NCBI RefSeq assembly: GCF_044647545.1
Contig: NZ_CP172818.1
From: Escherichia coli
GTDB taxonomy: Bacteria > Pseudomonadota > Gammaproteobacteria > Enterobacterales > Enterobacteriaceae
Direction: 5' to 3' (one strand)
Length of the DNA: 64,000 nucleotides
Each line of letters starts with the position of its first letter. Position 1 is the first letter of the stretch. Made by a program: the position numbers and the translations under genes. Below, in pieces: positions 9,041 through 9,546 of this stretch. A model generated the notes under the pieces. The model was given only the letters and a program-made list of their open reading frames with translations, made no database searches and had not been told where the DNA came from.

Positions 9041-9546
9041 TTATTTCTTCGCTTCTACGCCATCAGTTTCAGAGCGAATTAAAAATTTCTCAGTTGTTTG
9101 CGGAATATGCTGAATCAGCCAGTCGGCCATTTGCTTTTCCTCATTTAAAATCGCTTCGATGGTTGGAATTGAAGCTGTATCACCGGCATTTTTTGCTGCT
9201 GCTAAGAGTGAGGTGTAACAGGCGATTTCAAATTGCTCGAAGACATATCCGCTAATAGAGCCTTTGACTATTTCATCAGAAGGGAATATACCACCGATTG
9301 ACTGCCCAAGCGCAGCCATTTTACTCATGGAATCTTTAATGACTGAACGTGAAATGTCATTACGATCAAGAATAGTTTCCAGTTGAACAATCGGTTTTTG
9401 GTTTCAATAAGATGTTGTTCAATACGAGCGCGTAGTTCAGGATAATTATCTATACGGCTGGCCATGGATTAAAGCATAGATTCGGCTTGCTTTTCCATTG
9501 CGTGGGCGTCACGTAACCAGTCATGATAATGTTCAATACGATTCAT
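9041..9546 (-). pseudogene. yciE: yciE (ferritin-like DUF892 stress protein) disrupted by an in-frame TAA at codon 26 and a 1-bp frameshift
   Basis: ATG at 9546 gives MNRIEHYHDWLRDAHAMEKQAESML then TAA (9469-9471); the C-terminal 95 aa (ORF 9041..9328) are in a different frame; locus is 506 nt where an intact 168-codon gene needs 507. Confidence 0.8.

Follow-up and report, generated by a model that had tools for sequence, protein, structure and literature searches.

The gene yciE is the last gene of yciG-yciF-yciE, which lies between trpA and ompW, and in the window (the whole 64,000-nucleotide stretch of Escherichia coli DNA analysed here) all three genes are read from the minus strand (Table 1). 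The two genes upstream of yciE are undamaged, as a sequence-only reading of this DNA had claimed: the frames of both yciF and yciG are uninterrupted, and their products match the DUF892 and KGG repeat families, respectively. From yciE to yciG, the window is identical to strain ST648 and to ECONIH1, in which NCBI PGAP annotates both genes as intact proteins, yciF as WP_001056491.1 (at the same coordinates in ECONIH1) and yciG as WP_000807651.1. The literature (PMC7705038) presents yciGFE as a stress operon activated by McbR, with yciF and yciE as paralogues. The yciGFE unit ends at a terminator-like hairpin with a T-run, located just past the yciE stop codon. With yciE in last place and this hairpin behind it, lesions in yciE have no downstream gene on which to be polar, which bears out the earlier remark that they need not be so.

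Table 1. Features of the yciGFE locus, in coordinates of the window
Feature	Position	Strand	Remarks
yciE pseudogene	9041-9546	minus	506 nt, DUF892 ferritin-like family
Premature stop TAA, codon 26 (ancestral GAA, Glu)	9469-9471	minus	G to T at 9471
1-nt deletion site, A155 of codon 52 (CAG to C-G)	between 9392 and 9393	minus	frame shift
G140T (AGT to ATT, S47I)	9407	minus	third derived change, youngest of the three
yciF, intact, 166 aa, DUF892	9592-10092	minus	DUF892 match, E 4.7e-52
yciG, intact, 59 aa, KGG repeat stress protein	10178-10357	minus	KGG repeat family, E 7.9e-18
Terminator-like hairpin and T-run, just 3' of the yciE stop codon	9017-8995	minus	10-pair stem, 6 GC pairs, tail TTTTTGTGCG
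(GCAAC)x4 pentanucleotide repeat, yciG leader, directly upstream of a GGGAG ribosome-binding site	10370-10389	minus	

The yciE copy itself cannot be translated as a whole. Starting from the ATG at 9546, the minus-strand frame reads MNRIEHYHDWLRDAHAMEKQAESML and ends at the TAA of codon 26; the remainder of the locus is split between a 46-aa ORF (9325-9465) and a 95-aa ORF (9041-9328) in other frames. Thus a frame of about 168 codons is interrupted at two places, by the TAA and by the loss of one nucleotide within codon 52. A pairwise alignment with yciE of K-12 MG1655 (NC_000913.3, 1314718-1315224, 507 nt) gives 99.0% nucleotide identity and exactly 5 differences. These are G76T, which changes GAA to TAA; G140T; the missing A155, which changes CCAGATT to CCGATT and accounts for a locus of 506 rather than 507 nt; the synonymous A342C; and A439C, which gives N147H. 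The deleted A is flanked by C and G and lies in no homopolymer. Both inactivating lesions that had been read from the letters alone are confirmed by this alignment, the stop by the frame reading as well, and the functional gene against which they had been judged (Glu26, CCAGATT, 507 nt) agrees with the K-12 gene. The alignment also bears out the two G-to-T changes on the coding strand, which are G76T and G140T. From the intact yciE of strain PEC389, the window copy is separated by no more than the three derived changes and one synonymous site.

When the three derived changes are reverted, the resulting YciE translation matches PF05974 over residues 5-156 (E 4.8e-51) and the PDB entry 3OGH, 'Protein yciE', over residues 1-168 (E 3.7e-107); the latter alignment runs end to end, and one substitution is visible where it is printed. 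The K-12 gene (b1257) and the CFT073 gene, whose product is 3OGH, occupy the same locus, trpA-yciG-yciF-yciE-ompW, but both are intact, whereas the window copy carries the codon 26 stop, the codon 52 deletion, and S47I. By descent, then, the window yciE is a member of the DUF892 family, but it is non-coding and unable to encode the 168-aa protein. To our knowledge, the only biochemical function known for this family is that of YciF from S. Typhimurium (PDB 4ERU), which belongs to the same Pfam family and the same operon as YciE and is a distant paralogue of the repaired YciE (E 3.8e-05). The S. Typhimurium protein oligomerises and binds iron, and its ferroxidase activity requires the DUF892 metal sites; in addition, it protects against bile and oxidative stress (bioRxiv 10.1101/2023.01.20.524870). 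Judging from this relationship, ST648 has probably lost another iron-handling stress protein of the YciF type but retains YciF itself.

The window allele is not peculiar to one assembly. A megablast search of 5,426 complete E. coli genomes with the 506-nt yciE allele finds it at 100% identity in many independent complete assemblies produced by several laboratories in different countries and continents. These include strains ST648, ECONIH1, MS6198, and IMT16316 (an ST648 isolate; PMC6003029), and their sources range from humans, dogs, poultry, and pigs to wild birds, a dolphin, and wastewater. The RefSeq pseudogenes FH07_RS11080 (strain ST648) and ECONIH1_RS07645 are identical to the window copy over the 506 nt and the flanks, and PGAP labels the allele a pseudogene, 'frameshifted; internal stop'. 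Shorter queries allow the lesions to be counted individually within the same 5,426 genomes. A 60-mer centred on the stop has an exact match in 116 genomes, and a 60-mer containing both T140 and the deletion has one in 82; all three changes, the deletion, the stop, and G140T, occur together in at least 83. A 153-nt query spanning the three sites, with an E-value cut-off that leaves out wild-type alleles, returned 125 genomes: 82 at 100% identity, 34 with one mismatch, and 9 with two. The deletion is thus carried by about 125 of the 5,426 genomes, and in all matches listed the span of the record equals the aligned length of the query. A literature search for yciE as a pseudogene returned nothing on this allele. 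(It should be noted that yciE has been named as a prophage insertion site in O145:H25; PMC5567499.) The pseudogene is already flagged in public annotation, and the order of events and the counts given here are a modest addition.

The order of events follows from the alleles themselves. Base-by-base reading of 11 deletion-bearing alleles sorts them into three nested classes. Alleles of TCM3e1, 980-2, UID2309220003, and ECE313 have the deletion only, retaining GAA at codon 26 and G140, and PGAP accordingly labels them 'frameshifted' and nothing more; those of ECCNB12-2, XDL, MINF_1A, and GF131 have the deletion and the TAA but retain G140; and those of the window, strain ST648, and IR53017 (with one extra SNP) have the deletion, the TAA, and T140. 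All 4 of the genomes inspected from the low-identity class of the 153-nt search were deletion-only. The corresponding class sizes (82, about 33, and 9) should be taken as rough figures, as they derive from BLAST identity bands and the E-value cut-off, with 11 alleles read base by base. Exactly as many genomes carry the stop (116) as reach at least 99% identity in the deletion-bearing search; along with the constructed allele described below, this indicates that the deletion is present in all stop carriers. No genome with the stop but without the deletion was found among the 5,426 complete E. coli genomes. The opposite order, with the stop arising first, was considered by constructing an allele with the TAA but with A155 and G140 restored; it matched no genome better than the real alleles do, and its top two matches are intact alleles, of which the one that was read, PEC389, lies 2 mismatches away. 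Since deletion-only genomes exist and stop-only genomes do not appear, the frameshift came first and the other changes were made in a gene that was already dead; on this distribution of alleles, the frameshift rather than the stop is the founding, older lesion. The earlier claim that the two lesions are independent therefore stands, in that they arose at different times, given that some genomes have only the deletion. The pair of G-to-T changes was also considered as an oxidative or mutator signature, a reading that was rejected because the two changes date from different times (116 versus at least 83 genomes) and two events are too few.

The deletion-only allele encodes a 73-aa product consisting of 51 native residues and a 22-residue out-of-frame tail. 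Further changes mark sub-lineages: D61G in IR53017, R67C in GF131, and, shared by ECCNB12-2, XDL, and MINF_1A, G85S together with one synonymous change. Together with the stop and S47I, this brings the protein-altering changes since the frameshift to 5 (4 missense and the nonsense) versus 1 synonymous, numbers too small for proof, although their direction fits a relaxed constraint after the frameshift.

The deletion is not confined to ST648, since the deletion-only strain TCM3e1 is ST1722 (PMC8801394). In this ST1722-type allele, which is found in TCM3e1, 980-2, ECE313, and UID2309220003, the single nucleotide is lost at the same position as in the window; unlike the window, it has GAA at codon 26, G140, and 4 changes clustered at gene positions 375-387. 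The resemblance extends beyond the gene, as TCM3e1, 980-2, and UID2309220003 have no differences from the window in the end of trpA, the trpA-yciG spacer, or yciG (ECE313 was read over yciE only), and TCM3e1 has the 4-copy GCAAC repeat upstream of yciG, as does the window. There are 4 copies of GCAAC in the window, strain ST648, and TCM3e1, and 2 in K-12, PEC389, GF131, and ECCNB12-2. (This length polymorphism in the yciG leader might affect yciGFE expression.) In contrast, the trpA-yciG spacer of the genomes that have the deletion and the stop but retain G140 shows 14-19 differences from that of the window, and these genomes have 2, not 4, GCAAC repeats. Given such mosaic flanks, the nested pattern of lesions may in part reflect transfer of alleles by recombination rather than strict vertical descent.

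Divergence from K-12 is likewise uneven along the locus. Across 9041-10357 of the window, the dead yciE is nearer to K-12 (99.0%) than are the intact yciF and yciG (97.8%), and most differences from K-12 are concentrated in yciF and the trpA-yciG spacer; as judged from this unevenness, the locus suggests a recombination mosaic. On the other side of yciE, ompW is intact in the window (8343-8981). Several genomes with the same yciE allele, and some that lack the operon, have an ompW cut short by prophage genes (tail fibre, DinI-like, recombinase); prophages recurrently integrate at the ompW/yciE junction, which has also been named as a site for Stx-like prophages in O145:H25 (PMC5567499).

Outside this locus, the window is almost indistinguishable from ECONIH1. 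Positions 1-22074, 22509-45890, and 46557-64000 are colinear with that genome, and these 62.9 kb contain no mismatches and two single-base gaps, both intergenic. One gap (a missing G) lies at about 22063, after rluB, and the other (a missing C) at about 57241, between puuR and puuC; the two may represent genuine indels or else minor errors of assembly. Structural differences between the two genomes are found only at 22075-22508 and 45891-46556, and none at yciE. The first of these, between rluB and cobO, is a tract of 434 nt in which A makes up 76% of the bases and the longest run of A reaches 48 nt, in the position where ECONIH1 has a 1,544-nt segment with two hypothetical genes. The last 30 or so nucleotides of the tract echo the end of the ECONIH1 segment (gcggataatgacatggaatatcc), and the tract has the look of a region that collapsed or was corrupted during assembly, not of real biology. 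The second, between fabI and sapF, consists of 666 nt with a ycjD (DUF559) gene and REP-like sequence, where ECONIH1 instead has a 7.9-kb TetR/RND-efflux/MFS island. Its flanks are 100% ST648-type, and no complete genome exceeds 99.2% across the junction, which could be either a rare structural variant or a reference-guided fill-in.

Whether other genes show similar lesions, a question raised when the yciE damage was first seen, can be answered for the colinear stretch: in the PGAP annotation of ECONIH1, the only pseudogenes there are yciE and a remnant of ykgJ. This remnant, a YkgJ-family cysteine-cluster fragment at 8014-8103 between yciC and ompW, is labelled by PGAP as an incomplete pseudogene. 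It is present both in ST648-type genomes and in K-12-like strains whose yciE is intact, and is an old relic that many strains share, with no connection to the yciE lesions. A wider decay around yciE was thus rejected, since there are no mismatches with ECONIH1 over the 62.9 kb and no other ordinary gene is flagged; the damage is specific to yciE.

Three other ways of accounting for the state of yciE have to be weighed against inherited decay. The sequence-only reading had left undecided whether the lesions represent genuine pseudogenisation or sequence errors, and it is the former that stands. It is true that this assembly is imperfect, as witnessed by its artefact-like A-rich tract and by the two single-base gaps relative to ECONIH1. 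However, at least 82 complete genomes of independent origin share an identical allele, itself called a pseudogene by PGAP, and about 125 share the deletion; the lost A sits in a C-A-G context outside any homopolymer; intermediate alleles exist; and two G-to-T substitutions are not a typical platform error. Sequencing error was rejected on the recurrence of the allele and the non-homopolymer deletion, and the chance that clustered errors in a single assembly conceal an intact gene is close to nil. It is only marginally less improbable that yciE still functions, either by bypass of the stop and the frameshift or through an active C-terminal fragment, the 95-aa ORF that begins at Met74. The 46-aa ORF does overlap the start of the 95-aa ORF by ATGA, an arrangement that can permit termination-reinitiation, and the 95-aa ORF matches positions 73-158 of the DUF892 profile (E 9.2e-21). 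Nevertheless, neither internal ATG is preceded by a Shine-Dalgarno-like sequence, and the fragment would comprise half of a four-helix-bundle di-iron domain without its N-terminal helices. As for recoding, the TAA and the frameshift would each require a recoding event of its own, CC-GATT does not form a slippery motif (no slippery heptamer was found at the site, AAC-CGA-TTG), and intact orthologues are read through without a shift. Among the 4,727 genomes with yciE, most align over 507 nt, and no interruption occurs in any allele that was read outside the frameshift group. Moreover, missense changes keep accumulating, which argues against both recoding and restart. Phase variation likewise found no support: the deletion lies in no repeat or homopolymer, and 11 of the 11 deletion alleles read are in the same state.

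The remaining alternative concerns the cause of the loss rather than its reality, and it is best viewed against the distribution of the operon. Among the 5,426 complete genomes, yciE is matched in 4,727 and yciGF in 4,725. About 13% of complete genomes, Z0117EC0013 and 20AR0734 among them, lack yciGFE and have trpA directly next to ompW; STIN_95 has an IS1 element in place of yciG, yciF, and most of yciE; and ABU 83972-type genomes are without yciG. The operon-free trpA-ompW junction and the IS1 deletion of STIN_95 leave the cell without YciE, as in the window, but these other losses also remove yciG and yciF, whereas the window has point lesions in yciE only. Such routes to loss might mean that inactivation of yciE (or of yciGFE) has been selected because it benefits some extraintestinal or commensal lineages, with the ST648/ST1722 frameshift as one of several convergent losses; the several independent routes, and the spread of the point-mutation series with the successful ST648 clone, are what one would cite for it. 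Yet drift and clonal hitch-hiking would lead one just as much to expect repeated loss of a dispensable gene, yciF and yciG are intact in all inspected frameshift genomes, and absence of the operon could be ancestral in some phylogroups, so that selection is an unlikely explanation. The stronger form, in which yciGFE inactivation is convergent and selected in successful lineages and YciE, as a DUF892 ferroxidase paralogue, is costly in some host niches, must be regarded as slightly more doubtful still. The instances that would be named for it are the operon-free genomes, the IS1 deletion, the loss of yciG in ST73-type strains, and the ST648/ST1722 lesions. With yciGFE variably present in the species, the loss of yciE is in itself unsurprising.

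Taken together, these comparisons argue, with a high degree of confidence, that yciE is a genuine, lineage-fixed pseudogene that is inherited in the ST648 lineage and its relatives and has decayed stepwise, with neutral decay as the simplest cause. In the proposed history, a single A would first have been lost from codon 52, shifting the frame and cutting the protein to 73 aa, a truncation that by itself would remove most of the four-helix DUF892 ferritin-like domain. A G-to-T change in the gene, by then already dead, would next have created the TAA at codon 26, and a second G-to-T change would have altered codon 47 later still. The window would then have the most derived allele, one from which a peptide of at most 25 residues could be made from the yciE start. 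The upstream yciG and yciF, in their RpoS/McbR-controlled unit, would be unaffected since yciE is terminal. What was lost would most likely be a stress-induced, iron-binding, ferroxidase-type paralogue of YciF, as family membership predicts, and its loss would most simply represent the neutral decay of a dispensable gene.

The three-step decay, from frameshift to nonsense to missense, offers a possible lineage marker for ST648 and related strains. It is further evidence that natural E. coli can do without yciE, and indeed without yciGFE as a whole. Being an inherited gene loss of an ordinary kind, it has little importance other than for bookkeeping, and it would become more interesting only if the loss of YciE proved to alter the tolerance of iron, bile, or oxidative stress in this pandemic multidrug-resistant lineage.
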